Shown: in pieces, positions 4,707 through 30,495 of the stretch | How the letters are laid out: every line of letters begins with the position of its first letter | Position numbering within the stretch: position 1 is the first letter of the stretch | Source of the DNA: Coriobacteriaceae bacterium | GTDB lineage: Bacteria > Actinomycetota > Coriobacteriia > Coriobacteriales > Eggerthellaceae | Reading direction: 5' to 3' | Assembly: GCA_015062685.1 (NCBI GenBank) | Contig: SUUE01000002.1 | Span: forward strand, 129,692 to 161,691 | DNA length: 32,000 nt | Notes under the pieces: model-generated | What the model saw: the letters and a program-made list of their open reading frames with translations, nothing else | What the model was told of the DNA's origin: nothing | The model's database searches: none | Translations under genes and position numbers: made by a program

Positions 4707-5726
4707 TCACCCGAACAAGGCGCTCGGCTCGAACGCGCCATCTTCTGTGATGATGCGCGTGATGAAGCGCGCGGGCGTAACGTCGAAAGCGGGGTTCCAC
4801 ACCTCGACGCCCTCGATGGGCTCGGCGAGCACCTCACTCGCAGCGCGCTGCTCGATCACGATGCCGCGCCCGTCCTCCAACCGGGGGTCCACCGTCGAAG
4901 AAGGAGCGGCCACGTAGAACGGCACCCCGTGCTCGCGCGCGATGACCGCCAAGCCGTACGTGCCTATCTTGTTGGCCACGTCGCCGTTGCGCGCTATGCG
5001 GTCGGCGCCCACTATCACCGCATCGACCTCGCCTTTGGCCATGAGGCTCGCAGCCATGTTGTCGCATATGAGCGTGACCGGCACGCCTGCGCGGGCGAGT
5101 TCCCACGAGGTCAAGCGCGCTCCCTGCCCGACCGGCCTCGTCTCGTCGGCGTACACGCGCTCGACCTTGCCCTGCTCGGCCGCGGCATACACGACGCCCA
5201 GCGCCGTGCCGTAGTAATAAGTCGCCAAACTGCCGGCGTTGCAATGCGTGAGTATGCGCGACCCGGGCGCGATAAGGCCTGCGCCGTGTTCCCCTATCCG
5301 GCGGTTGCGAGCTTCGTCCTCGACCTGCATGGCCTCGACGAGGCTGAAGAGGGCGTCCGCCGCTGCAGCGATGCCCGCGCCATCGGGCATGTCCCCGACC
5401 TCGGCTAGCGCGCGGTCAACGGCCCAGCGCAAGTTCACCGCCGTGGGCCTCGCGGTCGCGATAACCTCGGCAGCATCTCGCATGCCCTCCAGCGATTCGG
5501 CATATGCCGCCCAGAGCGCAAGCGCCGCCGCGCCCGCAAGCCCGATCGCTGGCGCCCCGCGCACGGCGAGCACCTTTACCGCATCGACGACCTGGCGCCA
5601 ATCGCGCGTGCGCTCCATGCGAAGCTCCCCGGGGAGAGCCCGCTGGTCGACGTACTCGAAATAAACGCCGTCCGCATCTCTCCCGATTTCGACGGTCTTC
5701 GGTAAATTCTCTAAATGAAGTTCCAT
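4707..5726 (-). CDS. mtnA: S-methyl-5-thioribose-1-phosphate isomerase (eIF-2B alpha/beta/delta-like family)
   Basis: This is the C-terminal 339 aa of track ORF 4707..7217. It starts at the ATG at 5726 (MELHLENLPKTVEIGRDADGVYFEYVDQRALP) with a GAAGGGG SD. MtnA-type motifs are present: VRGAPAIG, THCNAGSLAT (catalytic Cys), ADETRP, GADRIARNGDVANKIGT (catalytic Asp). Confidence 0.85.
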   Translation of the reverse strand: MELHLENLPKTVEIGRDADGVYFEYVDQRALPGELRMERTRDWRQVVDAVKVLAVRGAPAIGLAGAAALALWAAYAESLEGMRDAAEVIATARPTAVNLRWAVDRALAEVGDMPDGAGIAAAADALFSLVEAMQVEDEARNRRIGEHGAGLIAPGSRILTHCNAGSLATYYYGTALGVVYAAAEQGKVERVYADETRPVGQGARLTSWELARAGVPVTLICDNMAASLMAKGEVDAVIVGADRIARNGDVANKIGTYGLAVIAREHGVPFYVAAPSSTVDPRLEDGRGIVIEQRAASEVLAEPIEGVEVWNPAFDVTPARFITRIITEDGAFEPSALFG

Positions 5727-5795
5727 AGGGCCCCTTCTCGTCGTTAAGGTGCTATTGTAGCGTGACTGGAAACAAGCGCGAGGAGACGGGAAACC

Positions 5796-6725
5796 ATGCA
5801 CATCCACAAAAACGTTTCGGAACTCATCGGCAACACGCCGCTCATCGAGCTCGCCAACTACGAACGAAACCACAACCTGAACGCCACCATCGCGGCCAAG
5901 GTCGAGTTCCTCAACCCGGCGGGGTCGATCAAGGACCGCGTGGCGAAGAACATGATCGAAGACGCGGTCGCCCGCGGCATGATCGACGACGACACCGTGC
6001 TCATAGAGCCCACATCGGGCAACACGGGCATCGGCTTGGCCGCGCTCGCGGCAGCGCGCGGCAACCGCCTCATCATCGCGATGCCCGAAACCATGTCGGT
6101 CGAGAGGCGCAACCTCATGAAGGCATACGGCGCGGAGCTCGTGCTGACCGATGGGTCGAAGGGCATGGCGGGCGCCATCGAGGAAGCCGAGCGGCTCGCG
6201 GCCGAAATCGACAACTCGTTCATTCCCGGCCAGTTCACCAACCCGGCTAACCCCGCAGCCCATTTCGACACGACCGGTCCCGAAATATGGCGCGACACCG
6301 ACGGAAAGGTCGACATCTTCGTCGCCGGCGTCGGCACGGGCGGCACGCTGAGCGGTGCGGGCAAGTTCTTGAAGGCCCAGAATCCGAACGTGCAGGTCGT
6401 CGCTGTCGAGCCCGCAGGCTCCCCCGTCCTGTCGAAGGGGACGGCCGGCAAGCACGACCTTCAGGGAATAGGAGCGGGTTTCGTGCCCGACACCCTGGAC
6501 ACCTCCGTCTACGACGAGGTCATCACGATCGAGGACGAGGAGGCCTACGAGGCCGGCCGCGAGCTCGCCGCCAAGGAGGGCCTGCTCGTCGGCATCACAT
6601 CGGGCGCCGCCGTCGCGGCCGCGCGCAAGCTTGCCGAGCGCCCCGAAAACGCCGGCAAGCTGATCGTGGCGATCCTCCCCGACACCGGCGAGCGCTACCT
6701 CACGACCGCCATGTTCGGAATCTAG
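5796..6725 (+). CDS. cysK: cysteine synthase A (O-acetylserine sulfhydrylase), PLP-dependent
   Basis: 309 aa with ELIGNTPLIEL, NPAGSIKDR (PLP lysine), EPTSGNTGIGLA and GVGTGGTLSG motifs. A GAGGAGA SD is present. Confidence 0.92.
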   Translation: MHIHKNVSELIGNTPLIELANYERNHNLNATIAAKVEFLNPAGSIKDRVAKNMIEDAVARGMIDDDTVLIEPTSGNTGIGLAALAAARGNRLIIAMPETMSVERRNLMKAYGAELVLTDGSKGMAGAIEEAERLAAEIDNSFIPGQFTNPANPAAHFDTTGPEIWRDTDGKVDIFVAGVGTGGTLSGAGKFLKAQNPNVQVVAVEPAGSPVLSKGTAGKHDLQGIGAGFVPDTLDTSVYDEVITIEDEEAYEAGRELAAKEGLLVGITSGAAVAAARKLAERPENAGKLIVAILPDTGERYLTTAMFGI

Positions 6726-6728
6726 AGC

Positions 6729-7823
6729 ATGGCAGGCGCAAGCAACAACCGCGTGCTCATGGCCATGAGCGGCGGCGTCGACAGCTCGGTGTCGGCGCTC
6801 GTGCTCCGCGATGCCGGCTACGACGTCGAGGGCGTCACGCTCAAGCTTTTCGACAACGACGACGCCTGCATCGAGGGCGAGAGCACGTGCTGCTCCCTCA
6901 AGGATGCAGACGACGCGCGCCAGGTGTGCCTCGAGCTGGGCATACCGCATTTCGTGTACAACTTCACCCGCACGTTCAACGCGGACGTCATGGACCGCTT
7001 CTGCAACGGATACCTGAACGGCGAGACACCCAACCCGTGCATCGACTGCAACCGCTACGTGAAGTTCGCGGCATTGCAGCAGCGCCGCCGCGAACTCGGT
7101 TACGACTACGTCGCAACCGGCCACTACGCGCGCATCGCCTTCAATGAGGAGACGGGGCGCTACGAGCTGAAACGCGGCCTCGACGCCAACAAGGATCAGA
7201 GCTACGTTCTCTTCCACCTAGACCAGGAAACGCTCGCCCATATGCTCTTTCCGCTGGGCGAGCTCACGAAGCCGCAAGTGCGAGAGCTCGCGAGCGCGCA
7301 TGGCTTCATAAACGCCGAGAAGGCAGAGAGCCAGGACATCTGCTTCGTGCCGGACGGGGATTACGCCGGCTTCATCAGCCGCCGCACCGGCAGCACCTTC
7401 GAGCCGGGCAACATCGTGAACCGCAGCGGCAAGGTCCTCGGCCGCCACAACGGCCTCATCCACTACACCATCGGCCAGCGGAAGGGCATCGGAGTCGCAT
7501 ACTCCGAGCCGCTCTACGTCTTCGCGAAGAACCCCACGCGCAACGAACTCGTCGTCGACACGGACGAGAACACGCGCTGCACGTCCGTCGAGGTAGACGA
7601 CGTCAATTTCATCGCCAGAACCTCTCTGCGCGAGCCCGAGAGGTTCACCGCGAAAACCCTCTACCGCCAAACCGCCAAGCCCTGCACGGTCCAGCAAACA
7701 GGCACCAGCAGCATCCGCATCACCTTCGACGAGCCCCAGCGAGCCAGCGCACCCGGCCAGGCCGCCGTCATCTACGACAGCGACACCGTCATCTGCGGCG
7801 GAACCATCTCCAACAGCCTGTAG
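6729..7823 (+). CDS. mnmA: tRNA-specific 2-thiouridylase (tRNA U34 2-thiolation)
   Basis: 364 aa with a PP-loop (AMSGGVDSSVSA), the NPCIDCN catalytic cysteine region, ATGHYAR and KDQSYVL. The start lies 3 nt after the cysK stop. Confidence 0.92.
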   Translation: MAGASNNRVLMAMSGGVDSSVSALVLRDAGYDVEGVTLKLFDNDDACIEGESTCCSLKDADDARQVCLELGIPHFVYNFTRTFNADVMDRFCNGYLNGETPNPCIDCNRYVKFAALQQRRRELGYDYVATGHYARIAFNEETGRYELKRGLDANKDQSYVLFHLDQETLAHMLFPLGELTKPQVRELASAHGFINAEKAESQDICFVPDGDYAGFISRRTGSTFEPGNIVNRSGKVLGRHNGLIHYTIGQRKGIGVAYSEPLYVFAKNPTRNELVVDTDENTRCTSVEVDDVNFIARTSLREPERFTAKTLYRQTAKPCTVQQTGTSSIRITFDEPQRASAPGQAAVIYDSDTVICGGTISNSL

Positions 7824-8094: not shown

Positions 8095-10803
8095 CTACGC
8101 CAAAGCAGCTTGCGCAGCGGCGAGACGCGCGACCGGCACGCGGTAAGGCGAGCAGGACACGTAGTTCAGGCCCACCTTGTGGAACTTCTTGATCGAGTCA
8201 GGGTCGCCGCCGTGCTCGCCGCACACGCCCGTCACCAGATCGGGGTTCGTGCTGCGGCCGCCCTTCACGGCGATGTCGATGAGCTTCACGACGCCGTCGT
8301 CGACGGTGGCGAACGGGTTCACCTTCATAATCCCCAGGGCCTCGTAGTCCTTGAAGAACTTGCCCTCGACGTCATCGCGGCTGAAGCCGAACGTCGTCTG
8401 CGTGAGATCGTTCGTGCCGAAGGAGAAGAAGTCGGCCTTCTCGGCGATCTCGTCGGCGGTCACGGCGGCGCGCGGCAGCTCGATCATCGTGCCGATCTCG
8501 ATGAAGCTCAGGTCAACGCCGTCGCGCTCCTCAACCTCGTGGATGGCCTTCTCGGCCTCTGTGCGGACGTAGACGAGCTCGCTTTCCATGGACACGAGCG
8601 GGATCATGACCTCGGGCTTGGGATCGAAGCCTTCCTTCAAGAGCTTCGCCGTAGCCGTCGCTATCGCGCGGACCTGCATCTGCGACAGGCCCGGCATCAC
8701 GATGCCAAGACGGCAGCCGCGCAGACCCAGCATCGGGTTCATCTCGGCCATGTTCTCGGCAGCAGCAAGCAGTCGCTGGGAAGCGGGATCGTGCTCGCCC
8801 TTCACGGCGTCGACCGCAACCTTTATGGCAAGCTCGTGCGCCGAAGGCAGGAACTCGTGCAGCGGCGGGTCGAGCAAGCGAACGATGACCGGCATTCCGT
8901 CCATCGCCTTGAGCATCTCGTAATAGTCGCCCACCTGCGCTTCATACAGCTTTTCAAGAGCCGAGTAATAGCTTTCGCTGTCCTGTTCGGCCAGGATCAT
9001 GTCGGCCACGATCTGCTTGCGGTCGCCCAGGAACATGTGCTCCGTGCGGCAAAGACCGATGCCCTCGGCGCCGAACTCTCGCGACTTCTGCGCATCTTCG
9101 GGGTTGTCGGCATTCGCGCGCACGCCGAGCGTGCGGAACTCATCGGCCCACTCGAGGATGGTATCCAGGTCGCCGGTCAGCTCAGGCTGCACCAAGTCGA
9201 CGGCGCCGAGCACCACGATGCCGGTCGTGCCGTCGAGCGAGATCATGTCGCCTTCGCGGATGACGATGTCCGTGCCGGAGATGGCGGCTTCCTTCTTCTC
9301 CGCGTCGATCTTGAGAGCCTCGACGCCGCATACGCACGGAGCGCCCATGCCGCGCGCGATGACGGCCGCGTGCGACGTCTTGCCGCCATGCGACGTGAGG
9401 ATGCCCTCCGCCGCGATCATGCCGGCCAGGTCGTCGGGAGTCGTCTCCCAGCGCACGAGCACCGTCTTCTTGCCCGCTTCCGCGGCGGCAACCGCAGCTT
9501 CGGCGGAGAACACGGCAGCGCCGACGGCGGCGCCGGGCGATGCGTTCAGGCCGCGGGCCACGACGTCATACGAGGCGTTCTTGTCGAATTGCGGGTGGAG
9601 CAGCTGGTCGAGCTGCTCGGGTGCGACGCGCTTGACGGCCTCCTCCTTGGTGATGAGGCCCTCCTTCTCCATGTCGATGGCGATCTTGAGGGCGGCCGCG
9701 GCGGTGCGCTTGCCCACGCGGGTCTGCAACATGAACAGCTTGCCCTGCTCGATGGTGAACTCGATGTCCATCATGTCGCGGAAATGGTGCTCGAGCAGCA
9801 CGAAGATCTCCTCCAGCTGCTTGCCGGCCTCCTCGAGGCCTGCGACGTGCTTGAGCTCGGAGATCGGAGACGTGTTGCGGATGCCGGCCACGACGTCCTC
9901 GCCCTGGGCATTGACCAGGTAGTCGCCGTAGAACTCGTTGGTGCCGTCGGCGGCGTTGCGCGTGAACGCGACGCCCGTGGCCGACGTATCGCCCTTGTTG
10001 CCGAACACCATGCACTGCACGTTGACTGCGGTGCCCAGGTCGTCGGCGATCTTGTTCTGCTTGCGGTAGAGCGTCGCGCGCGGGTTGTTCCACGAACCGA
10101 AAACGGCCTCGATAGCGAGCTTCAGCTGCACCATCGGGTCCTGCGGGAACGCGACCTTGCCGTCCACGACGAGCTCGGGATACTCGGCAGCGTCAACGCT
10201 ATCGGAGAAGATGCCCTTGAAGGTGGCGACGAGCGCCTCGAGGTCCTCGGCGTTCAGGTCGGTGTCCTGCTTCACGCCCTTCGCGTCCTTCGCGGCGGTG
10301 ATGGCGTGCTCGAACTTGTCGCCGTCGATGCCCATGACCACGTTCGAGAACATCTGGATGAAACGGCGGTAGCTGTCCCATGCGAAGCGGGGGTTTTCGG
10401 TCTGCTCGATGAGGCCGTGGATCGATCGGTCGTTCAAGCCGAGGTTGAGCACCGTGTCCATCATGCCCGGCATCGACATGGGCGCGCCCGAGCGGACGGA
10501 GACGAGCAGCGGGTCGGCGTCGTCGCCGATCTTCTTGCCCATGCGCTCCTCGAGGTCGGCGCGGAACTCGGAGATCTCGTCGAGCGCGCCCTCGGGCCAC
10601 GTGTTATCGGCGTTCGCGTATTCCATGCATGTCTGGCAAGTGATGGTGAACCCCGGGGGCACCGGCAGGCCGATGTTGGCCATCTCGGCGAGGTTCGCGC
10701 CCTTGCCGCCGAGCACGTACTTCATCTCGGCATTGCCTTCAGTAACGTTGTTTCCCTGTGCGTCATGCCCAAACTTGTAGACACGCTTGACTGCTTCAGT
10801 CAC
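8095..10803 (-). CDS. ppdK: pyruvate, phosphate dikinase
   Basis: Track ORF 8095..10818. PPDK hallmarks are present: N-terminal VYKFG....G......LGGKGANLAEM, phospho-histidine region GGKTSHAAVIARGMG, C-terminal PEP/pyruvate domain GLCRTEHMF and FFSFGTNDLTQ. I prefer the GTG start at 10803 (MTEAVKRVYKF) because the upstream GTG at 10818 is itself part of a GGAGGAG SD, 6 nt before 10803. Confidence 0.93.
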   Translation of the reverse strand: MTEAVKRVYKFGHDAQGNNVTEGNAEMKYVLGGKGANLAEMANIGLPVPPGFTITCQTCMEYANADNTWPEGALDEISEFRADLEERMGKKIGDDADPLLVSVRSGAPMSMPGMMDTVLNLGLNDRSIHGLIEQTENPRFAWDSYRRFIQMFSNVVMGIDGDKFEHAITAAKDAKGVKQDTDLNAEDLEALVATFKGIFSDSVDAAEYPELVVDGKVAFPQDPMVQLKLAIEAVFGSWNNPRATLYRKQNKIADDLGTAVNVQCMVFGNKGDTSATGVAFTRNAADGTNEFYGDYLVNAQGEDVVAGIRNTSPISELKHVAGLEEAGKQLEEIFVLLEHHFRDMMDIEFTIEQGKLFMLQTRVGKRTAAAALKIAIDMEKEGLITKEEAVKRVAPEQLDQLLHPQFDKNASYDVVARGLNASPGAAVGAAVFSAEAAVAAAEAGKKTVLVRWETTPDDLAGMIAAEGILTSHGGKTSHAAVIARGMGAPCVCGVEALKIDAEKKEAAISGTDIVIREGDMISLDGTTGIVVLGAVDLVQPELTGDLDTILEWADEFRTLGVRANADNPEDAQKSREFGAEGIGLCRTEHMFLGDRKQIVADMILAEQDSESYYSALEKLYEAQVGDYYEMLKAMDGMPVIVRLLDPPLHEFLPSAHELAIKVAVDAVKGEHDPASQRLLAAAENMAEMNPMLGLRGCRLGIVMPGLSQMQVRAIATATAKLLKEGFDPKPEVMIPLVSMESELVYVRTEAEKAIHEVEERDGVDLSFIEIGTMIELPRAAVTADEIAEKADFFSFGTNDLTQTTFGFSRDDVEGKFFKDYEALGIMKVNPFATVDDGVVKLIDIAVKGGRSTNPDLVTGVCGEHGGDPDSIKKFHKVGLNYVSCSPYRVPVARLAAAQAALA

Positions 10804-10930
10804 TTTGCACTCCTCCACTCGCTGCTCTGCTAGAGCTGCTCTGAACAGAAACTTTGAACGGCCCGCAGGCCGTCCACTTATCGATTTACATGGTAACTCA
10901 ATTCTGAGCCAACGGGTAACCGCTCGCCGA

Positions 10931-13637: not shown

Positions 13638-15218
13638 TTACAGCTTGACCAGCCAGAGATTCTCGAGGTCGGGGATAGCCGCGCGCAGCTCCTCGACGAG
13701 CTCCTCGTCCACCTCGCCCTCGATGTTCAGGTACACGACCGCGCTCTCGCACCCCTCGCGCTTGCCGATCTGCATCGTAGTGATGTTCACACCGGCATTG
13801 CCCAAGATAGTGCCGATCATGCCGATGCGCCCGGGGGCATCGACGTACTTCATGATGAGCGACTGCGCAGCCGGCTCGATATCGAAGCTGTAGCCGAACA
13901 GCGAGATGATGCGCGCGGGTCGGTCGGTTCCGTACAGCGTGCACGCGATCGAGTAGTCGTCCGTCTCGATCTTGACCATCGAATCGTAGCCCGCTGAATT
14001 GACCTGTGATGCGGTGGTGGCCTCGATGCCATGCCGCTGGGCAACCGAAGCGGCGTTCTGGCTGATGACGGCTCCCACGTTCTTGTACGCCAAGATGCCC
14101 TTGAGGGCACTGGCCAGAAGCGTTGACGTGTCCGCACTCGACAACGTGCCCGAAGCCGTGAGCGCCAGCTTGCGCGGAACGTCTTCCTCGAGTTGCAGGA
14201 GGATCTTGCCCATCATCTGGCAAGCGGTCAGGTACTGGCCGTACTTATCCATGACCTCGGGCGGGACGTTCGACATGTTGACGGCGGTCGGGACGATAGA
14301 GCCCGCGAGGCCCTGCGCCACGAACGTCGCGATCTGCACGCCCGCTCGCCTCTGCGCCTCGACCGTCGCAGCCCCGATGTGCGGCGTGACGATCGCGTTG
14401 TCGAACTCGTGAAGCGGCGATTCCGAGACGGGCTCGCCTTCGAGCACATCGAAGCCGACCGCGCGAATCTTGCCTGCAGCGATGAAGTCCGCGAGCGACT
14501 TCTCGTTGAAGATTCCGTCGCGCGCCACGTTGACGATGACGACGCCGTCCTTCATGGCCGCGAACTGCTCGGGGCCGAACATGTCCGCCGTCTCGGCCGT
14601 TTTCGGCATGTGGACCGTGATGAAATCGGCAAGGGGCAGCATGTCGTCCATGTCCTCGTACAGCTCAACTCCGAGCGTGGCGGCACGGTCGCGGCTGCAA
14701 TAAGGGTCGTATGCCACGAGGTTCATGCCGAACGCGGCAGCGCGCTGGGCCACGAGGCCGCCCACGCGGCCGAGGCCGAAGATGGCGAGCGTCTTCTCGT
14801 ACAGCTCGCACCCCATGAAGGCGGAGGGGTTCCATTCGCCCGCGTGCATGGAGGCATTGGCCTGGGGCACGTTGCGGGCGGCCGACAGGATGAGCGCCAT
14901 GGCGTACTCGGCAGCCGACATGATGTTGGAATTGGGGGCGTTGCAGACGACGATGCCGCGATCCGTCGCGGCCTCGAGATCGATGTTGTCGATGCTCACG
15001 CCCGCACGGCCGATAACCTTCAGCTTGTCAGCCGCCTCGATGACGCGGCGCGTGACCTGCGTGCGCGAGCGCACGATCAGGCCATCGTAACTTGCAATGC
15101 ATTGAACGAGCTCGTCTTCGGTGAGACCCGGCTTCAGGTCGACGTCCAGGCCCCTCGTCTTGAGGACGGAAATGCCCGCTGCGTCGATTTCGTCGGATAC
15201 CAGTACCTTATGAGCCAT
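13638..15218 (-). CDS. serA: D-3-phosphoglycerate dehydrogenase (long form with C-terminal ACT domain)
   Basis: Track ORF 13638..15296 trimmed to the ATG at 15218 (MAHKVLVSDEID), which has a GAGGGGG SD. That gives 526 aa with an NAD-binding GLGRVGG motif, RAD..VHMP.T..T and a catalytic HIGA region, plus a C-terminal ACT-like tail. Confidence 0.9.
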   Translation of the reverse strand: MAHKVLVSDEIDAAGISVLKTRGLDVDLKPGLTEDELVQCIASYDGLIVRSRTQVTRRVIEAADKLKVIGRAGVSIDNIDLEAATDRGIVVCNAPNSNIMSAAEYAMALILSAARNVPQANASMHAGEWNPSAFMGCELYEKTLAIFGLGRVGGLVAQRAAAFGMNLVAYDPYCSRDRAATLGVELYEDMDDMLPLADFITVHMPKTAETADMFGPEQFAAMKDGVVIVNVARDGIFNEKSLADFIAAGKIRAVGFDVLEGEPVSESPLHEFDNAIVTPHIGAATVEAQRRAGVQIATFVAQGLAGSIVPTAVNMSNVPPEVMDKYGQYLTACQMMGKILLQLEEDVPRKLALTASGTLSSADTSTLLASALKGILAYKNVGAVISQNAASVAQRHGIEATTASQVNSAGYDSMVKIETDDYSIACTLYGTDRPARIISLFGYSFDIEPAAQSLIMKYVDAPGRIGMIGTILGNAGVNITTMQIGKREGCESAVVYLNIEGEVDEELVEELRAAIPDLENLWLVKL

Positions 15219-15303
15219 GGCTGCCCCCTCACCTGGTTTGCAGATGGCTCTATGGTACCAAAACAGATGAGCTTGGCCAGACGGGCCTCGCCCCAACGGT
15301 TCC

Positions 15304-15798
15304 TTACGCTCCCTTGCTGTTTCGGGAGATGGCGATCTTTCCCGTGCGGGTTATCTCTTTGATCCCGTACGTGGCCAGGAGGTCCTCCATGCCCTGCAGC
15401 TTGTTCTGCGACCCCGTGGCCTCGATGGTGAGTTCGCTCGCCCCCACGTCGACGATGTTCGCGCGGAAAAGGTTGGCTATCTCGACGACTTCGCTTCGCT
15501 TCTCGGGAGGCGCGCTCACCTTGAACAGGACGAGCTCGCGCTCGATGTAGGAGTCGTTGGTGAGGTCCTGGAGCTTGTAGACGACCACGAGCTTGTTGAG
15601 CTGCTTGGTTATCTGCTCGTACGCTTCGTCATCCGCCATCACGATGATGGTGATCCGAGAGCGCGACGGATCCTCGGTCGGCCCCACAGACAACGACTCG
15701 ATGTTGAAGCCGCGCCGCGAAATGAGCCCGACGACGCGCGACAGCACGCCCGACTTGTTCTCGACCAGCACTGACATGACGTGCTTCATCTCGCTCAT
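15304..15798 (-). CDS. ilvN: acetolactate synthase small (regulatory) subunit
   Basis: 164 aa with an ACT domain N-terminus (HVMSVLVENKSGVLSRVVGLISRRGFNIESLSVGPTED). The start overlaps the ilvB stop (ATGA). Confidence 0.92.
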   Translation of the reverse strand: MSEMKHVMSVLVENKSGVLSRVVGLISRRGFNIESLSVGPTEDPSRSRITIIVMADDEAYEQITKQLNKLVVVYKLQDLTNDSYIERELVLFKVSAPPEKRSEVVEIANLFRANIVDVGASELTIEATGSQNKLQGMEDLLATYGIKEITRTGKIAISRNSKGA

Positions 15799-23555: not shown

Positions 23556-25241
23556 TTACAGCAAGCCCGCCTTGCCCGCGAGGTTGGCTAGCCTCGCCAG
23601 GTCCTCGACGGAATACTCCGTCTGGCCGAGCAAGCTGGACAAGCTCGATAAATCATAGTCCTTAATATAGAGTTCGGTCGTGTCATAACTTGAAATTCCC
23701 GCAAGCGCCGCCGCCTTGTCGCATGCGTCCTCGCGCGTTCCCACGGCATCGGCCAACCCGTTGAGCACGGCGTCGTCGCCTGTGAACGGCATGCCTGTGG
23801 CAATTGCCCTCACCTGCTCCTCGGTCATGTGGCGCCCGTCCATAACCTCTTGGATGAACATGTTGTTGATCTTGTTCACCATGTCCTGGTAATACGCGCG
23901 CTCTTCATCGGTCAGCGGGCGGTACCCGTAGGAAGAGTCCTTGCTTTCAGACGAGGTGATGGTCTCCATCTGCACGCCGAGCATGTCAAGCAGGCCCGAG
24001 ATGTCGGTAAGCTGCATGGCCGTGCCGATCGCGCCGATCTCCGTGGACCGTGCTACGTAGATGTAGTCGGACTGCGCCGAGATCATATACGCCGCGGAAG
24101 CGTTTATTGAGGCGCTCGACACCACGACGGGCTTGCTGAAGTCCTTGAGGTACTCGGACATCTCCTCGCCCGCCGTCGCCGTCCCGCCGCCCGAGTTGAC
24201 GCGGATCACGACGGCCTTGATGTGGCTATCGGCTTCCGCCTCGTCGAGCAGCTGCTTGAAGCCCTCGGGACTGCAGGCAGAACCGTCGTACTGGATGGTC
24301 CCGTCGAGGTCGATGATGGCGACCGTATCGCCAGTCAAGGCCTTGGGGGCAGTAGAGCTGCCGAGCTGAACCATGGCGTCGCTGCATGACTTCACGCAGA
24401 ACGCCGTGAGGGCGAACATGCACACGATGAAGACGATCGCGACGATCCAGCCGCGCGATTTCTTCTGGACGACCGCGGGTTGAACCGGCACGGCGGCCAC
24501 GTAGGGCTGAGCCGGTTGCGCGGCATAATACGCCGCCTGGGGCTGCTGCCCCATGGGCGCGGTCTGATACGCCGCATGCGGCTGCGCCTGCTGAGCTTGC
24601 TGCGCGGGCTGTGCCTGCTGTGCTTGCTGAGCGGGCCGGGCCTGCTGCGCAGCTTGCTGCGTTGGCCAGGCCTGCTGAGCGACCTGCTGAGAGGGTTGCG
24701 CTGCTTGGGACTGTTGCTGAGCGGGCTGCTGCCCCTGCGCCCTCGCCTGCTGCTGAACCGCCTGCTGCCTAACGGCCTGTTGTTGAGCTGCCGCCTGCTG
24801 CTGAGCGGCTTGCTGCTGGACAGCCTGCCCCTGTTGCTGCGAGGCCTTCTGCTGCGCAGGCTGCGCCTGCTGTTGTTGGACTGCCTGCTGCTGCGCCGTC
24901 TGCTGCATCGCTTCCCGCTGCTGCCTGATGGCCCTCTGCTGGGCAGCATGCATCTGCGACTGCTGCCGCATGGCCTGCTGCTGGGCGAGCTGCTGCTTGG
25001 CAAGCTGCTGCTGCGCGGCCTGGGCCGCCTGCTCGGGGGTCTGCGCCTGGGCTTGCTGGGCTTGCTGGGCTTGCTGGGCCTGCTGGGGCTGCTGCGCTTG
25101 CGCGGCGGGTTGGGGCCGAAGCGCTGGCTTGACCTGCAAAGGCTCGGTCGAACGAGGTTGGGATGCCGATTGAGCCAGCTCTGGGAAATAGAACGATTCC
25201 GCCGGTGTCAGCGGGTGCCTATTCTCGTCATTCGTGGTCAT
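23556..25241 (-). CDS. sppA: signal peptide peptidase SppA (36K type, S49 family) with long Gln/Ala-rich cytoplasmic N-terminal domain
   Basis: Track ORF 23556..25262 trimmed to the ATG at 25241 (MTTNDENRHP), which has an ACGGAGA SD. About 210 aa of Q/A-rich low complexity is followed by one TM helix (WIVAIVFIVCMFALTAFCV) and then the S49 domain (AVVIRVNSGGGTATAGEE, SINASAAYMISAQ, TSSESKDSSYGYRPLTDEE). Confidence 0.85.
   Translation of the reverse strand: MTTNDENRHPLTPAESFYFPELAQSASQPRSTEPLQVKPALRPQPAAQAQQPQQAQQAQQAQQAQAQTPEQAAQAAQQQLAKQQLAQQQAMRQQSQMHAAQQRAIRQQREAMQQTAQQQAVQQQQAQPAQQKASQQQGQAVQQQAAQQQAAAQQQAVRQQAVQQQARAQGQQPAQQQSQAAQPSQQVAQQAWPTQQAAQQARPAQQAQQAQPAQQAQQAQPHAAYQTAPMGQQPQAAYYAAQPAQPYVAAVPVQPAVVQKKSRGWIVAIVFIVCMFALTAFCVKSCSDAMVQLGSSTAPKALTGDTVAIIDLDGTIQYDGSACSPEGFKQLLDEAEADSHIKAVVIRVNSGGGTATAGEEMSEYLKDFSKPVVVSSASINASAAYMISAQSDYIYVARSTEIGAIGTAMQLTDISGLLDMLGVQMETITSSESKDSSYGYRPLTDEERAYYQDMVNKINNMFIQEVMDGRHMTEEQVRAIATGMPFTGDDAVLNGLADAVGTREDACDKAAALAGISSYDTTELYIKDYDLSSLSSLLGQTEYSVEDLARLANLAGKAGLL
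25051..25095. repeat. 9-bp in-frame tandem repeat (GCTTGCTGG x3, then GCCTGCTGG and GGCTGCTGC) inside sppA
   Basis: Read directly at 25051-25059, 25060-25068 and 25069-25077 (identical), and at 25078-25086 and 25087-25095 (degenerate). On the minus strand it encodes (QQA)n. Confidence 0.8.
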
Positions 25242-25294
25242 GGAATCTCCGTCCGGTAGCACATTTATTCAACGGAGCATTTTACCTCATGCTC

Positions 25295-25333
25295 AATGAA
25301 ATGGGCCGAGGGGAGGACGCCTCCCCTCGGCCC
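25295..25333 (-). terminator. rho-independent terminator closing the RR-metA-HK-DUF4956 string
   Basis: A perfect 14-bp stem (GGGCCGAGGGGAGG 25303-25316 with CCTCCCCTCGGCCC 25320-25333) and a 3-nt loop. It is followed on the minus strand by ATTTCATT and lies 25 nt after the DUF4956 stop. Confidence 0.7.
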
Positions 25334-25358
25334 ATCATATTCATCGCAGAACTTGACG

Positions 25359-26051
25359 CTAGAGCTGCTCGCGGCGCGCTTTAGGGCTGCCGAGCGATAT
25401 CTTCAGGTTGCCGTTCAAGCACCTCAGCTCATCGATCATGCTCTTCTCGAGGCCGGCTTCCTTCATGGCCACCCGGTACTCGAGCTGATAGAGGCTGCCC
25501 ATGTTGGTGGTGCTCACGTTCTCCAGCTCGTAGCTGCGCGTGTAGCTCTCGAGCACGCCGTCGAACGCCCCCTCGAATTCCAGGTCCTCGGGCGTGGTGA
25601 TCTTGAGCAGCTTGCTCGCCTCGCGCGGCTGGCCGAACGACGTGGTCACGTAGAGGATGTTGAACACGCCCACGACCACGGTGAGGATCGCAGCCACGCC
25701 GATGTAGCCCATGCCCGTGGCCAAGCCGATCGCCATGGCCAAGAACACGCTGCCGATATCCTTCGCGGTGCCCGCGATGGAGCGGAACCTCACGAGGTTG
25801 AAAACGCCCATGACGGCGACGCCGGCTCCCAGGTTCCCGTTCACGAGCGTGATGACCATCTGGACGATGACCGGCAGCAGCGCCAGCGTGATCACGAAAT
25901 TCTTCGAGTAGTCGTGCTTGTACATGTAGATGAGCGCGCCGACGAGGCCGAGCACGATCGACGCGAGCGTGCACCACATGAACCCGGCCGTGGTGACGGT
26001 GGTCATGGCGGATTCGGTCGTACCCAACACCGATGAAAAAAGAATGTCCAT
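25359..26051 (-). CDS. DUF4956 domain-containing membrane protein
   Basis: This is the C-terminal 230 aa of track ORF 25359..26204. It starts at the ATG at 26051 (MDILFSSVLG) behind a GGGAGGGAG SD. About 4 TM helices, including the conserved-looking FNLVRFRSIAGTAKDIGSVFLAMAIGLATG, are followed by a ~85-aa soluble tail. The family call comes from my recollection of the DUF4956 pattern and was not searched. Confidence 0.75.
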   Translation of the reverse strand: MDILFSSVLGTTESAMTTVTTAGFMWCTLASIVLGLVGALIYMYKHDYSKNFVITLALLPVIVQMVITLVNGNLGAGVAVMGVFNLVRFRSIAGTAKDIGSVFLAMAIGLATGMGYIGVAAILTVVVGVFNILYVTTSFGQPREASKLLKITTPEDLEFEGAFDGVLESYTRSYELENVSTTNMGSLYQLEYRVAMKEAGLEKSMIDELRCLNGNLKISLGSPKARREQL

Positions 26052-26133
26052 GTTTGGCTCCCTCCCATTCCATTGCTTCTTTCTGGAACGGAATAGTAAG
26101 AGCCGAACCTTAAGCCATCCTGAAACGCCGGCG

Positions 26134-27486
26134 CTAGACGCAGGGGATCGTGACGGTGAAGGTGGTGCCCTCGGATGCGGAGCTCGCGCACGTGATGTCG
26201 CCATCGTGCTCGCGCGCTATCTCGCGGGCAATCGCCAGGCCGAGGCCGAAGCCGCCCTCCCCCGACGTGCGCGCCTTGTCCGTGCGGTAGAAACGGTCGA
26301 AGATGTGCGGCAGGTCCTCCGGCGCGATGGTCGACCCCGTGTTGCTGATGGCGAGGCTCGCGATGCCGCCCGCGCACGTCAGCTTCACGTCGACCCTCCC
26401 GTGGTCGTCGACGTACTTGAGCGCGTTCTCGATGAGCGTGGAGGCCATCTTTCGAAGCCGCTGCACATCGCCGTCGACCGTGACCCCCTCGACAATCTGA
26501 CCCTCCAGCTCGCAACCGCGCTCGAACGCCACCGACTCGAACTGCAGGACGAGGCCGTCCACGAGATCGCTGAAATCGAGCTCCTCGCGCTGGAGCGCGC
26601 TACGCGACTCGACCTGCGCCAGCTCGAGCATCTCGTTCACGAGCCCCTGCATGTGCTCCGCCTCCACCTGGGTGCTCTCGATCCACTGGCTCTGGCTCGC
26701 TATGCTCGATTCTGGGTGCTTGAGAAGGATCGAGGTGTTTGCCAGCACCACCGTGAGCGGCGTCTTGAGTTCATGCGAGGCGTCCGCCACGAACTGCCGC
26801 TGAGCGGTCCAGGCCTCCTCGACGGGCCTCAGCGCCCACTTCGACAGCATGAGCGACAGGGCGAAGAACACGGCGAGCACCACGATGGCCGCTATGACGA
26901 GGTTCATGGCAAGCGATTGCCACCCCATGGTCGAAGCGGTGTCGGCGAACGCCACGTAGGTCGCGGTCTCGGTGGTGCGCTTCTGGTAGTGAAGGCCCAG
27001 ATCCCCGAGCGTGCCCTGCCCGTCCCCGGCCGCGAGCACGCGGTCCGACGCCTCGGACAGCACGGCCTCGTCGATCTCGGCCGTCGTGAAACCAGAGACG
27101 ATCTGGAGTTCCGATGCTTCCGTGGTCGTTGTCACCTGGTAAACGGCAACGGGCACGATATCGCGCGCGTCGCGGCCCTCGCCGCCGATGCGCGGCCCTT
27201 GGAACTGACCCTCATCCGTGACGGGAAGTTCCTCGCGGGGGCCGGGTTTGCCCGCCTGCCGATCGCCTTTGCCGCCGTTGGACGCGTCATCCCAGGCAGC
27301 GCCATAGTCGAAGCCCTCCGCATTGCCCACGACGACCCGATCGATCGCGTTCGCCATGGCCGCGTCGATGCTCGACATCGTTCGCTGGTACTCGCTTGCG
27401 CAGATGCCCGTGAACACCACGGCCAGCACGAGAGCCACCGACGTCATGACGATGGCGATGAACTTTATACGAAGCTTCTTGAGCAT
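26134..27486 (-). CDS. sensor histidine kinase (two TM segments, ~170-aa extracytoplasmic loop, HisKA + HATPase_c, no obvious HAMP/PAS)
   Basis: 450 aa. TM1 is FIAIVMTSVALVLAVVFTGI and TM2 is LAMNLVIAAIVVLAVFFALSLML. The H-box FVADASHELKTPL lies only ~20 aa after TM2. N, G1 and G2 boxes are present (ENALKY, DRFYR, GGFGLGLAIA). A GGGAGGA SD is present. Confidence 0.9.
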   Translation of the reverse strand: MLKKLRIKFIAIVMTSVALVLAVVFTGICASEYQRTMSSIDAAMANAIDRVVVGNAEGFDYGAAWDDASNGGKGDRQAGKPGPREELPVTDEGQFQGPRIGGEGRDARDIVPVAVYQVTTTTEASELQIVSGFTTAEIDEAVLSEASDRVLAAGDGQGTLGDLGLHYQKRTTETATYVAFADTASTMGWQSLAMNLVIAAIVVLAVFFALSLMLSKWALRPVEEAWTAQRQFVADASHELKTPLTVVLANTSILLKHPESSIASQSQWIESTQVEAEHMQGLVNEMLELAQVESRSALQREELDFSDLVDGLVLQFESVAFERGCELEGQIVEGVTVDGDVQRLRKMASTLIENALKYVDDHGRVDVKLTCAGGIASLAISNTGSTIAPEDLPHIFDRFYRTDKARTSGEGGFGLGLAIAREIAREHDGDITCASSASEGTTFTVTIPCV

Positions 27487-27503
27487 AGGGTCCTCCCGCG
27501 AGC

Positions 27504-28631
27504 CTACCTCCAGGGGTCGGGCTCGAACAGCGGCGGCTCCTCGCGGCGGTCGGAGTACGGGTCGTAGCCGTCGTCATCCTCGTTCATAGCGCGCAAGTAG
27601 GGCGACACGCGCGGCTTCTGGTCGTCGGACTCCCAATGGAGCGGCCTCGTGGCCACCTCCGTCTCGCGCGCATCCACCTCGGCGAGCTCGTCGGATATCT
27701 TGTGCGTCTCCTCGAGGCCGACGCGCCGCACGTCGTACGGCGTGGTCTGGTAGACGTAGTAATTGAGCCAGTTCGTGTACAGCAGCTGAGCATGCGCGCG
27801 CCAATTGGATTTCGGCGGGTTGTCGGGATCGTCTCCCGGGAAGTAATGCCGCGGCACGGCGATCTCGAGGCCCTTGTCCACATCCCTCTCGTACTCCGCG
27901 CCGAGCGTCGCGCGGTCATACTCGGGGTGGCCGAACACGAAGAAGTTCCTGCTGTCGATGCTCTTCGCGGCATACACGCCCGCCTCGTCCGAGAGCGCGA
28001 GGATCTCGAGTTCGGGATGCGCCTCGATATCGCCGATGCGCACTTCCGTGTAACGCGAATGCGGCGCCCAGAACGTGTCGTCGAAGCCGCGCAGCAGCGG
28101 CGAGGTCAATTTGATCTGCCGGTGCTCGAACACGCCGAACTTCTTCTTGCTCAGCGTGTGCTTGGGCACGCCGTAATGGTAGTAGATGCCCGCCTGAGCG
28201 CCCCAGCATATATGGAGCGTGCTATGGACGTTGGTCCGCGTCCACTCCATGATCTCGCAGAGTTCGGGCCAGTAGTCCACCTCCTCGAAGTCGAGGAGCT
28301 CCACCGGAGCCCCGGTGATGATCATGCCGTCGAAGCGCTCGTGGCGCACTTCGTCGAAGGTGCGGTAGAACATCTCGAGGTGCTGCTCGGACACGTTCTT
28401 GTGATCATGGCTCGCCATGTGCATGAGCGTGATCTCGATCTGCAGCGGCGTGTTCGACAGCTTGCGCAGGATCTGCGTCTCGGTCGCGATCTTCGTGGGC
28501 ATGAGGTTGAGCAGCACCACCCTCAGCGGGCGGATGTCCTGATGCATCGCGCGATACTCCGTCATGACGAAGATGTTCTCGCTTGCGAGCAGGTCGGTTG
28601 CGGGCAATGCGTCAGGTATGCGAATGGGCAT
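27504..28631 (-). CDS. metA: homoserine O-acyltransferase MetA, predicted acetyl-specific (Glu at position 111), with ~70-aa C-terminal extension
   Basis: Track ORF 27504..28661 trimmed to the ATG at 28631 ([15 protein letters not shown]). The catalytic triad sits at canonical positions: Cys142 (HICWG) and His235/Glu237 (FGHPE). GAPVE places Glu at residue 111. The protein is 375 aa, against roughly 305-310 aa for typical MetA. Confidence 0.9.
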
Positions 28632-28692
28632 GTTTTCCTCGTTCCACCGTGCCCCGCTCAACGGAATGCGTGTTCTCGCTAGGGGCTTTCTT

Positions 28693-29364
28693 CTAGTTTT
28701 CGACTAAACGATACCCCACACCGCGCACGGTTTCAATCTGAACGCTTGCGACGAGGTGCTTCAACTTCTTCCGGAGGAACGAAATGTACGCCTCGACGTT
28801 GTTGTCCACCGCCGTCGACTCGACCCCCCACACCTTCGCGATGAGGGTGTCCTTCGACACGATCTGATTCCTGTTGGTCATGAGCACCTGCAAGAGCGAG
28901 AACTCCTTGAAGGACAGGTTTATGGACTTGCCCGCACACGAGAGGTCGTGGCTCTCCAGGTTGAGCTTGATATCGCCCACTTCCAAGTTCTCGAAGACCA
29001 CCTGGCCCGTCCTTCGGGTGAGCGCCCGCAGATGCGCGAGGAGCTCCGCCGGGCTGAACGGCTTGGTCATGTAGTCGTCGGCGCCGGAATCGAGGCCCTC
29101 GATCTTGTCGGGTATCTGCGCGCGTGCGGTCAGCATGAGAAGCGGCGTGCTCACGCCCTTCCGGCGCAGCTCCTTGGCTACCTCGAAGCCGTCCATCTTC
29201 GGCAGCATCACGTCGAGGATGATGACGTCGTATATCCCGGATTCCCCGTAATCGAGCCCGGACTTGCCATCGTGCACCATATCGACCTGATAGTCGTTCT
29301 CCTCGAGGATCTTGCCTACGGCCTGCGCGAGGCGAATGTCGTCTTCGACTATAAGTACCTGCAT
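28693..29364 (-). CDS. OmpR/PhoB-family response regulator (REC + winged-helix)
   Basis: Track ORF 28693..29418 trimmed to the ATG at 29364 (MQVLIVEDD). It has the phospho-acceptor region [20 protein letters not shown] and KPF, and a C-terminal winged helix ([12 protein letters not shown]....[11 protein letters not shown]). Confidence 0.92.
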
Positions 29365-29422
29365 GCTCCCCACCTTTCCGTGTGATGAGTCCCATTCTAC
29401 TCGACAAGCTGAATACAACCTT

Positions 29423-29464
29423 AAACCGCGGTTTCAGATTCGGTTCAGGGTAGCCCGCTAACAT
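29423..29464. promoter_or_regulatory. candidate regulator binding sites in the RR / VTC divergent intergenic region
   Basis: A 12-bp perfect palindrome AAACCGCGGTTT lies at 29423-29434 and overlaps a 7-4-7 direct repeat GTTTCAG-ATTC-GGTTCAG at 29431-29448. The repeat ends 10 nt upstream of a TAACAT -10-like hexamer (29459-29464) that faces the VTC gene. Confidence 0.3.
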
Positions 29465-29495
29465 GTTCGCAGCGAAAGGGAGAAGCGGAGGAATC

Positions 29496-30410
29496 ATGGC
29501 TACCGTAAGCGACACGTTCGAGCGCAAGGAGAAGAAGTATCTGATCACGGCCGAGCAGTGCCGTGCCATCAAGGAGGCCCTCGCGCTCCGCATGGAGCTC
29601 GACGACTACGGTGCGTCACGCATCGACAGCCTCTACCTGGACACTCCGGACCGCTCGCTCATATGCAGGTCACTCGAAAAGCCCGTCTACAAGGAAAAGC
29701 TGCGCATCCGCAGCTACGGGGCCTTCTCTGAAGCCGGGAAGGTGTTCGTCGAGATCAAGAAGAAGTTCAAGGGGATCGTCTACAAGCGCCGCGTGGCCAT
29801 GAGCGCCGCCGGCGCCCAAGCGTTCTATTCGGGCGAGCTCTCGTATGAGGAAGCATGCGAGCGCTTCCCCATCGCGGGGTCCGCCCCCTCGACAGCGCTA
29901 TCTCCGGGAAAGGTTCAGATCGCACGCGAGATCGAAGCGTTCCTGAACCGCTATGACGGCCTCGCGCCATCGATGCTCATAAGCTGCATGCGCGAGGCCT
30001 GGCGCCCGATCGACCCCGAAGACGAAGACTGCGTCGATCGCATCACGTTCGACGAGGACATCTGCTACGTCGACCTGATGCAGGACTCGGCGGTGCAAAG
30101 GTGCCGCGTGACGGGGCCCGATCAGGTGGTCATGGAAGTGAAATGCGCGGGCGGCTACCCCGCATGGCTCTGCGAGCTGTTCTCGGAAGTCGGGGCCTAC
30201 CCGCGCTCGTTCTCGAAATACGGCAACGCGTACAAGCGCGTGCTCGCAGGTCAGGGCGCCATCGATATCCGCGATTCCGATTCCGGCAAGGTGTCCATCC
30301 ACCGCATACCCACCGCCCGCGAGCGCGTCGGCAAGCATTCGGGGTCGTTGATCTCGCCTTCGGCCGGCTACGAGCTGGCCACTCCCCTCACCTTCGCCCG
30401 AGCTTCATAA
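29496..30410 (+). CDS. VTC domain-containing protein (triphosphate tunnel metalloenzyme fold, polyphosphate-polymerase-like)
   Basis: Track ORF 29463..30410 trimmed to the ATG at 29496 (MATVSDTFERKEKKYLI) behind a GCGGAGG SD. It shows an alternating basic/acidic beta-strand pattern typical of VTC/CYTH tunnels: FERKEKKY, SLYLDTPD, EKLRIRSY, VFVEIKKKFKGIVYKRR, RITFDEDI, VVMEVKCAGGYPAWL, FSKY. The family call is from pattern recognition and was not searched. Confidence 0.78.
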   Translation: MATVSDTFERKEKKYLITAEQCRAIKEALALRMELDDYGASRIDSLYLDTPDRSLICRSLEKPVYKEKLRIRSYGAFSEAGKVFVEIKKKFKGIVYKRRVAMSAAGAQAFYSGELSYEEACERFPIAGSAPSTALSPGKVQIAREIEAFLNRYDGLAPSMLISCMREAWRPIDPEDEDCVDRITFDEDICYVDLMQDSAVQRCRVTGPDQVVMEVKCAGGYPAWLCELFSEVGAYPRSFSKYGNAYKRVLAGQGAIDIRDSDSGKVSIHRIPTARERVGKHSGSLISPSAGYELATPLTFARAS

Positions 30411-30457: not shown

Positions 30458-30495
30458 AGCCGCATCGGGTTCAACCCGATGCGGCTGTTTCTTCT
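30458..30495. terminator. bidirectional rho-independent terminator between the VTC gene (+) and lrgB (-)
   Basis: A 12-bp perfect stem AGCCGCATCGGG (30458-30469) with CCCGATGCGGCT (30475-30486) and loop ttcaa. It is followed by GTTTCTTCT on the plus strand and TTCCTTTAC on the minus strand. Confidence 0.75.

Follow-up and report, generated by a model that had tools for sequence, protein, structure and literature searches.

A VTC-domain protein and a DUF4956 membrane protein in a conserved bacterial gene module with a dedicated two-component system and a predicted operator

What does a relative of the yeast polyphosphate polymerase Vtc4 do in a gut bacterium, and with which partners does it do it? 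To our knowledge, bacterial polyphosphate synthesis is credited to PPK1 and PPK2, and synthesis of the vacuolar transporter chaperone (VTC) type is regarded as eukaryotic. The question is raised by a stretch of 32,000 nucleotides from a Coriobacteriaceae bacterium (assembly GCA_015062685.1, contig SUUE01000002.1, positions 129,692 to 161,691), hereafter the window, in which a gene for a VTC-domain protein is divergent from genes for an OmpR/PhoB-family response regulator, the methionine biosynthesis enzyme MetA, a sensor histidine kinase and a DUF4956 membrane protein. Altogether, our results support a model whereby the VTC, DUF4956, regulator and kinase genes form a conserved, autoregulated module with a predicted operator of its own. 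This conclusion is well supported and we regard it as highly probable. In this module, a tunnel enzyme of the VTC type is found in bacteria, and both its membrane partner and its control logic are different.

The VTC gene (29496..30410, + strand) encodes a soluble protein of 304 amino acids, identified by Pfam, Foldseek and profile searches, that matches PF09359 over profile positions 1–233 of 235 (E 1.3e-37, 130.1 bits against a cutoff of 23). Two features led us to choose the start at 29496: this codon has a GGAGGAA ribosome-binding site ahead of it, and the alternative ATG at 29463 overlaps with the −10 box. The minus-strand unit begins with the response regulator (223 amino acids, 28693..29364 within the open reading frame (ORF) 28693–29418; Pfam Response_reg and Trans_reg_C), continues with metA, for a homoserine O-acetyltransferase (27504..28631 within ORF 27504–28661; Pfam HTS/MetA, E 2e-140; NCBIfam MetA_acetyl, 494 against a cutoff of 460), and the histidine kinase (450 amino acids, 26134..27486; HisKA and HATPase_c), and ends with DUF4956 (25359..26051 within ORF 25359–26204; PF16316, E 2.8e-16, 60–61 bits against a cutoff of 30.6). 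The real start of DUF4956 is the ATG at 26051, which yields a polytopic protein of 230 amino acids, the length found in relatives. Pfam thus places at these coordinates all five families that a preliminary description of this DNA had named, and, with starts at 28631, 27486 and 26051, the ORF coordinates yield its gaps of 61, 17 and 82 nt.

Is this grouping a property of the window or of a wider family? A genome census took one genome per species and the 80 best-matching VTC loci, the ORFs of which were searched iteratively with the window proteins; linkage was counted in the 55 loci where the sequence extends 3.5 kb or more to either side of VTC. In 48 of these 55, no more than 600 nt separate DUF4956 from VTC; regulator and kinase lie within 3.5 kb in 39, and all four genes are together in 37. 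A reverse census, anchored on DUF4956 in 80 metagenome contigs, finds VTC within 600 nt in every contig with enough upstream sequence (53/53). The VTC–DUF4956 neighbourhood, which the preliminary description had mentioned as frequent in bacteria, holds in two independent censuses. Among three close VTC homologues on long contigs, regulator, kinase and DUF4956 are beside VTC in each case and metA in none, and one of them is ordered kinase<regulator<|>VTC>DUF4956. This order and regulator>kinase>VTC>DUF4956 are the common ones, and the module is found intact in three gene orders. The arrangement in the window, in which soluble enzyme and membrane partner had been described as bracketing the sensor/regulator pair, is present as described and is derived; in the usual arrangement VTC is followed directly by DUF4956. 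In 42 of 70 loci, the two genes overlap, typically by 8 nt, at the VTC stop codon and the DUF4956 start, which is a signature of translational coupling. Hosts comprise Coriobacteriia, Lachnospiraceae, Oscillospiraceae, other Clostridia, some Bacilli and one archaeal (Thermoplasmata) bin.

Unbiased clustering of the neighbouring ORFs returned one more conserved gene, which encodes a beta-helix protein of the Cthe_2159 family (PF14262; E 1e-77 to 1e-101) whose signal sequences are of lipoprotein type. In 62 of 87 sources this gene comes next after DUF4956, in the same orientation, for example at L019:11615–13693 and L064:11317–12897 (L numbers denote related loci), and is downstream in the L011–L086 and L094–L173 sets. 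In the 22 metagenome contigs with large flanks, VTC is present in all 22, Cthe_2159 in 20 and the two-component system in 14. Other recurrent clusters of neighbouring ORFs were antisense or alternate-frame shadows of module genes.

A few contigs of this set (L011, L012, L028 and L030–L032) come from Prevotella, Butyrivibrio, Bacteroidaceae or Succinivibrio bins and carry a Coriobacteriia-like module at 45–52% identity with the same regulatory box (see below), which suggests that they are mis-binned rather than that these taxa are true hosts.

The two-component system belongs to the module. Regulators next to VTC have a median identity of 55% (256 bits) to the window regulator as against 37% (144 bits) for the other regulators in the same loci. 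Similarly, kinases next to VTC align with the window kinase from residue 1, including its extracytoplasmic sensor loop, whereas non-adjacent kinases align from residue ~229 onwards, in the catalytic core only. The VTC-adjacent pairs are thus one orthologous group, sensor domain included, and together with the box shared by the module promoters this bears out the earlier proposal of a dedicated system. The kinase has two transmembrane segments around an extracytoplasmic loop of ~155 amino acids, then a short linker; neither a HAMP nor a PAS domain was detected in it, and an alignment of the sensor loops contains no diagnostic motif. The regulator scores below every NCBIfam equivalog cutoff, the best being RppA (224 against 250), and the pair reaches neither the PhoB nor the PhoR equivalog (185.7 against 296 and 178.7 against 334, respectively).

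What probably ties this pair to its targets is a short repeat. When the divergent regulator–VTC spacers of 31 loci were aligned, both strands were seen to carry a conserved tandem direct repeat, TTTCAG-N5-nTTMAG, 9–10 nt upstream of a TAnnAT box at fixed spacing; the repeat has a period of 11 bp and occupies the place of the −35 element in the promoters of VTC, the regulator gene and DUF4956. In the window, the VTC box (29432..29448, +) reads TTTCAG ATTCG GTTCAG and is followed after 10 nt by the −10 element TAACAT (29459–29464); the box of the regulator operon (29409..29425, −) reads TTTAAG GTTGT ATTCAG, with TAGAAT (29394–29399 on the + strand) 9 nt further on; and the DUF4956 box (26109..26125, −), within the 82-nt gap before that gene, reads TTTCAG GATGG CTTAAG, with TACTAT (26093–26098) after 10 nt. 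TTMAG-N6-TTMAG has exactly these three sites in the window against 0.00 expected, and the 17-nt version of the box with one mismatch allowed adds no further window site. Related loci totalling 1.34 Mb contain 99 exact boxes, where shuffled sequence contains 8; of the 99, 85 are at module genes, 46 before VTC, 31 before the regulator gene and 8 before DUF4956. The last eight are the window's own and those of its closest relatives L001, L003, L005 and L007–L010, where DUF4956 is transcribed apart from VTC. In an independent metagenome set, 35 of 43 boxes are at VTC, regulator or DUF4956. PhoB-type activators likewise use tandem direct repeats that stand in for the −35 element, in the same geometry. 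The box is likely the operator of the regulator, binding being predicted from its position and distribution, and its presence before the regulator gene implies autoregulation.

Two further observations concern these boxes. In the spacers of L001 and L007, a long GC-rich near-perfect inverted repeat (e.g. GGGGTGGCGGGGAGGGTGTCCGCC...GGCGGACACCCTCCCCGCCACCCC) lies between the divergent boxes, lengthens the spacer from ~130 to 290–400 nt and resembles a small repeat element. In four Senegalimassilia-like loci (L012, L013, L014 and L016), a gene for a NUDIX hydrolase with weak similarity to NudE lies a few kb from the module and is preceded by a TTTAAG-N5-TTTCAG box and TACTAT (L013:15899(−), ORF 14642–15538(−)), with a 5′ leader of ~300 nt; from this box, the hydrolase may be an extra member of the regulon in this clade.

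What, then, is the enzyme under this control? The VTC protein consists of the domain (residues 1–250) and a tail of ~55 amino acids modelled with low confidence. When its AlphaFold2 model (pLDDT 73.7) is searched with Foldseek, the top eight matches are all yeast VTC chains, led by 3g3q (E 1.3e-9, TM 0.55–0.58). A profile built from 17 diverse relatives and searched against the PDB matches solely Vtc4, Vtc3 and Vtc2, with Vtc4 at E 2.2e-13. Such profiles were needed because single-sequence PDB searches were uninformative, giving no match for the VTC protein and chance matches only (E 0.06 or weaker) for DUF4956. Neither an SPX nor a DUF202 match was found in the VTC protein with Pfam.

In yeast Vtc4, the triphosphate is held by K200, R264, R266, K281, R361, K458, S457 and Y359 and Mn2+ by E426; mutating these ligands lowers yeast polyphosphate and all are required in vivo, and K458 is the only one to differ between the active Vtc4 and the inactive Vtc2 and Vtc3 (preprint 10.1101/2023.01.27.525886). 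We mapped these residues onto the window protein by HMMER alignments and counted their conservation over 84 relatives. K200, R264, R266, K281, R361, S457 and K458 correspond to K14, R70, R72, K88, R166, S240 and K241, so that the Lys of active Vtc4 is present, and the tunnel-exit residues R196, K294, R373 and K428 to R10, K97, R182 and K216. The preliminary description had staked its proposal on conservation of the tunnel Lys and Arg residues; each of the seven active-site residues is kept in 79–84 of the 84 relatives. E214, in the strand MEvK, is invariant (84/84) and, judged by its motif, is probably the equivalent of E426. The active site is Vtc4-like with two deviations, to which we return below, and the family assignment is firm. 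That the chemistry is that of a polymerase rather than a hydrolase we infer. The C-terminal tail (residues 251–304; 30246–30410) is an addition seen in the window clade, within which G254 and K265 are invariant; Clostridial orthologues of roughly 230 amino acids are without it.

The partner of this enzyme is a member of a large family (5319 clusters at 50% identity, E ≤1e-3) of strongly conserved proteins of ~225–231 amino acids, and PF16316 is matched by 19 of 19 diverse members. They carry the signatures NGNxGAGVAVxGxFxLVRFRS, AMAxGLxxGMGY, IPEDLDY, NMGS and LRCRNGNL. The AlphaFold2 model of the window protein (mean pLDDT 72) has helices at 21–43, 50–71, 96–113 and 117–136, followed by a C-terminal domain (147–221) of beta-alpha-beta-beta-alpha-beta topology. 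This domain is the only part of the model with Foldseek matches, which are to the PII-like protein SbtB, ACT domains and CutA (E 0.01–0.08, TM ~0.5).

We tentatively favor a model, to which we give a little less than an even chance, in which the module is a signal-induced, Vtc4-like polyphosphate polymerase that works at the membrane together with DUF4956 and often with a surface lipoprotein. In this model, the kinase would perceive a signal through its extracytoplasmic loop and phosphorylate the OmpR-type regulator, which would then bind TTTCAG-N5-nTTMAG in place of a −35 element at the promoters of its own operon, of VTC and of DUF4956. Because boxes are present at all three promoters, the signal would induce sensor, enzyme and membrane partner together. 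The effector would be the pair of soluble tunnel enzyme and membrane protein, and translational coupling of the two in most lineages makes it probable that they form a complex on the inner side of the membrane. Like yeast Vtc4, the enzyme would take the gamma-phosphate of ATP and build or lengthen a polyphosphate chain, while DUF4956 might anchor the enzyme, gate it or pass on its product, with the cytoplasmic ACT/PII-like domain sensing a ligand. The Cthe_2159 lipoprotein, co-transcribed in most relatives, would point to the envelope or the cell surface as destination.

Several observations weigh against this model. The position of Y359 is C164 in the window protein and is not conserved: among the 84 relatives it is Tyr in 42, Cys in 35, Val in 5 and Thr in 2. 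An invariant Glu, E12, occupies the position of Vtc4 T198 and turns the strand into R-x-E-x-K, nearer to ExExK. E214 is matched to E426 by motif only, with no significant residue alignment, and the C-terminal half of the protein searched alone against the PDB gives just motif-level matches. Activity data for any bacterial VTC-domain protein were not found in the searched literature. In the DUF4956 model, the conserved Gly-rich segment 72–95, which ends in VRFRS, is poorly modelled, and the helix count is 4 or 5, with four helices predicted confidently. The membrane part has no PDB match by Foldseek, and in particular no match to the yeast VTC transmembrane chains even with 7ytj, 8i6v and 9umg in the library. 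Neither the window nor its closest relatives, L001–L010, have the Cthe_2159 gene. Finally, both censuses are of best-matching loci and speak for this subfamily rather than for all VTC proteins.

One consequence can be drawn directly. The preliminary description had invoked the yeast complex, where synthesis is coupled to translocation through a membrane subunit, as a guide to the membrane partner; because Foldseek matches no VTC transmembrane chain, this channel analogy is structurally unbacked, and DUF4956 is unlike Vtc1-type transmembrane subunits. We reject DUF4956 as a Vtc1-like channel, and export through it is possible but unsupported.

The deviations in the active site lead to the rival explanation that survives best, which we nevertheless consider somewhat unlikely: that the VTC protein acts by hydrolysis, as a tripolyphosphatase, polyphosphatase or NTPase, and that the module degrades or senses polyphosphate or triphosphate at the membrane. 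Most bacterial triphosphate-tunnel enzymes are hydrolases, and the ExExK motif marks hydrolases of the CYTH/TTM family. The invariant E12 in its R-x-E-x-K strand is akin to this metal-binding motif, and retention of Tyr at the Y359 position in just half of the relatives fits the same explanation. Because the basic tunnel residues are shared across the whole TTM family, they do not alone specify a polymerase, and the box-bearing NUDIX hydrolase of the Senegalimassilia clade can be read in the same direction. Against this, profile and fold are far nearer to Vtc4 (E 1e-9) than to any characterised hydrolase (1e-3 or weaker), the equivalent of K458, which distinguishes active polymerase subunits, is conserved, and a simple cytoplasmic phosphatase would not be expected to be so closely coupled to a membrane protein and a lipoprotein. 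Compared with CYTH/TTM enzymes such as class IV adenylate cyclase-like proteins and tripolyphosphatases, the window protein shares the eight-stranded tunnel, the basic residues and one acidic residue of ExExK; structurally, these "adenylate cyclase"-like proteins match it far less well (E 1.7e-3 or weaker) than Vtc4 does (1e-9), and none appeared in the profile search.

The C-terminal domain of DUF4956 raises a second alternative, in which the pair is a signalling device: the tunnel enzyme would make a small phosphorylated or cyclic product, and the ACT/PII-like domain would bind it and modulate another membrane protein, possibly the kinase, in a manner similar to MgtC. The Foldseek matches of this domain to SbtB and ACT ligand-binding folds are compatible with such a role, although their E values are only 0.01–0.08. 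A multi-helix membrane domain with an ACT-like tail also resembles the architecture of MgtC, and MgtC is the second most frequent weak Pfam match of DUF4956 proteins (8 of 19 members, best E 0.15). This architecture, a shared motif and these weak matches suggested that DUF4956 could be a distant MgtC relative, which was tested with hhalign, once against Escherichia coli YhiD and once against an alignment of six MgtC sequences taken from plasmid records. The predicted motif is aligned, yet the link is not significant (probability 1.3% for YhiD; 3.8%, E 0.011, for the MgtC alignment), and we do not accept it. DUF4956 and the MgtC/SapB/YhiD family (PF02308) share a small polytopic domain followed by a cytoplasmic beta-alpha-beta-beta-alpha-beta domain, and a Gly/Ala-rich AIGLxxGxGxY segment aligns locally; homology is statistically unsupported, and NGNxGAGVAV, VRFRS, IPEDL and RCRNGNL of DUF4956 are missing from MgtC. 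With CYTH cyclase-like proteins matching the enzyme much more weakly than Vtc4 does, and with the co-transcribed lipoprotein left unexplained, we regard the signalling alternative as improbable.

Two further explanations we consider extremely improbable. The genes could be chance neighbours or a case of local synteny, with the two-component system controlling something else, as the unrelated housekeeping gene metA inside the operon and the housekeeping genes throughout the rest of the window might suggest; this is contradicted by the census, in which linkage is kept across Coriobacteriia, Clostridia, Bacilli and one archaeal bin in three gene orders while the flanking genes vary, and by boxes specific to the module promoters. 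An anti-phage defence or other mobile accessory system, for which nothing specific speaks beyond an uncharacterised multi-gene cassette in many lineages, is at odds with a lack of PADLOC model matches for VTC, DUF4956 and Cthe_2159, with no mobility genes beside the module, with a G+C content (~63% in the window) that is flat across the module region, and with a chromosomal context conserved within Eggerthellaceae.

Returning to the favored model of a Vtc4-like polymerase at the membrane, comparison with characterised systems helps to define what is distinctive about the module. It shares with the yeast VTC complex the Pfam domain, the tunnel fold, which is the best PDB match, the triphosphate Lys/Arg/Ser set including K458, and the pairing of a soluble catalytic domain with a membrane component. 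It differs from that complex in that the window protein is without SPX and without a fused transmembrane domain and has Cys for Y359 and Glu for T198, in that the partner is DUF4956 with 4–5 helices and an ACT/PII-like domain rather than a three-helix Vtc1-type (DUF202) protein, in that control is by a two-component system rather than by inositol pyrophosphate and SPX, and in that a beta-helix lipoprotein is often co-transcribed with the bacterial genes. With PPK1 and PPK2 it may share the end product, polyphosphate from ATP; folds and mechanisms are unrelated, and the PPKs are not tied to a dedicated membrane protein or two-component system. In its predicted control the module resembles PhoR/PhoB, with an OmpR/PhoB-family regulator, 11-bp tandem repeats that replace the −35 element ~10 nt before the −10 element, and an autoregulated operon. 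It is distinguished from PhoR/PhoB by scores below the equivalog cutoffs, the half-site TTTCAG and a sizeable extracytoplasmic kinase loop, and by the absence of pst and pho genes near the module in the window.

The VTC–DUF4956 pair has been noted before. In Gram-positive bacteria, pel operons can adjoin accessory genes comprising cotH, a "poly-phosphate polymerase" and DUF4956, with DUF4832 or a diguanylate cyclase/phosphodiesterase in addition (Whitfield et al. 2020, PMC7112168), and NELoc-2 of Clostridium perfringens carries VTC-domain and CotH genes (PMC11677781). These clusters share the gene pair with the window, at the level of annotation and with no function assigned. Their partners are different: here the pair is accompanied by the dedicated two-component system and, in relatives, usually by Cthe_2159, and neither CotH kinase nor pel genes were found in the window or in 160 related loci. 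In full-text literature searches, the pair came up in annotations only and no functional study of the module was found, in agreement with the earlier statement that the pair has no experimentally assigned function.

The module thus places a Vtc4-like enzyme with a conserved active site, Y359 excepted, in a widespread and tightly linked set of genes of gut and rumen anaerobes, with a sensor and a predicted operator of its own, with an obligatory membrane partner and, in many cases, with a surface lipoprotein. If polyphosphate is the product, this would be new enzymology, would give a function to DUF4956 and Cthe_2159-type proteins and would have implications for how the eukaryotic VTC complex arose. 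It is tempting to speculate further, on a point that we consider rather doubtful, that the VTC-type synthase and DUF4956 deliver polyphosphate to the envelope, where it would be held by the Cthe_2159 lipoprotein under the control of an envelope-sensing two-component system, in bacteria and some archaea. This would constitute a third, PPK-independent route and a prokaryotic counterpart, possibly the source, of the eukaryotic Vtc4 domain. The predicted operator makes the regulon directly testable, and the three promoters with boxes are ready reporters for the inducing signal.

Although metA is found in the window as earlier described, among 87 sources it lies between the regulator and kinase genes only here and in L007, and it is not a conserved member of the string. 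Because only these two have it, the insertion is recent and lineage-specific, and from this distribution we take it that metA is a passenger and not a part of the module. No riboswitch was found ahead of metA, as an Rfam scan of the entire window returned no RNA family. A weak sigma-70-like site, TTGAAA-17-TATCGT, lies at 28736–28708 (−), inside the 3′ end of the regulator gene.

Both transcription units of the window end in hairpins. VTC has its own intrinsic-terminator-like hairpin, found by the terminator scan (30458..30486, +; a 13-bp stem followed by GTTTCTTCTG), and is therefore monocistronic in the window. The minus-strand unit is ended by a perfect 14-bp GC-rich hairpin between DUF4956 and sppA (25303..25333, −) with arms GGGCCGAGGGGAGG (25303–25316) and CCTCCCCTCGGCCC (25320–25333) around the loop ACG. 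As minus-strand RNA, the 71 nt around it (25280–25350) fold at −42.5 kcal/mol (z = −6.2 against shuffles). The hairpin that had been described as a terminator is thus exact and folds stably, although its 3′ tail is only AUUUCAUU, with a weak U-tract, and the simple terminator scan did not call it.

The nearest protein relatives of the window are in Eggerthellaceae/Coriobacteriia assemblies, and the genes that flank the module are housekeeping genes (MetRS, SppA, LrgAB, PPDK, Rho, IlvBN and SerA). Pyruvate phosphate dikinase adjoins the module in the Eggerthellaceae relatives L001 and L003–L005 and lies ~14 kb off in the window (8095–10818, −), a proximity that probably reflects synteny, not function. 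The neighbouring SppA (peptidase S49) homologue (23556–25262, −) has an N-terminal region of ~270 amino acids made up almost entirely of Gln/Ala-rich low-complexity repeats (QQAQQ and the like) ahead of its membrane segment. Finally, we note that an ORF of 836 amino acids (4707–7217, −) has as its sole Pfam domain an IF-2B/MtnA-like domain in the last 280 residues, the N-terminal 550 amino acids being unmatched; it may represent a fusion, or else an ORF that is over-extended in this GC-rich DNA.

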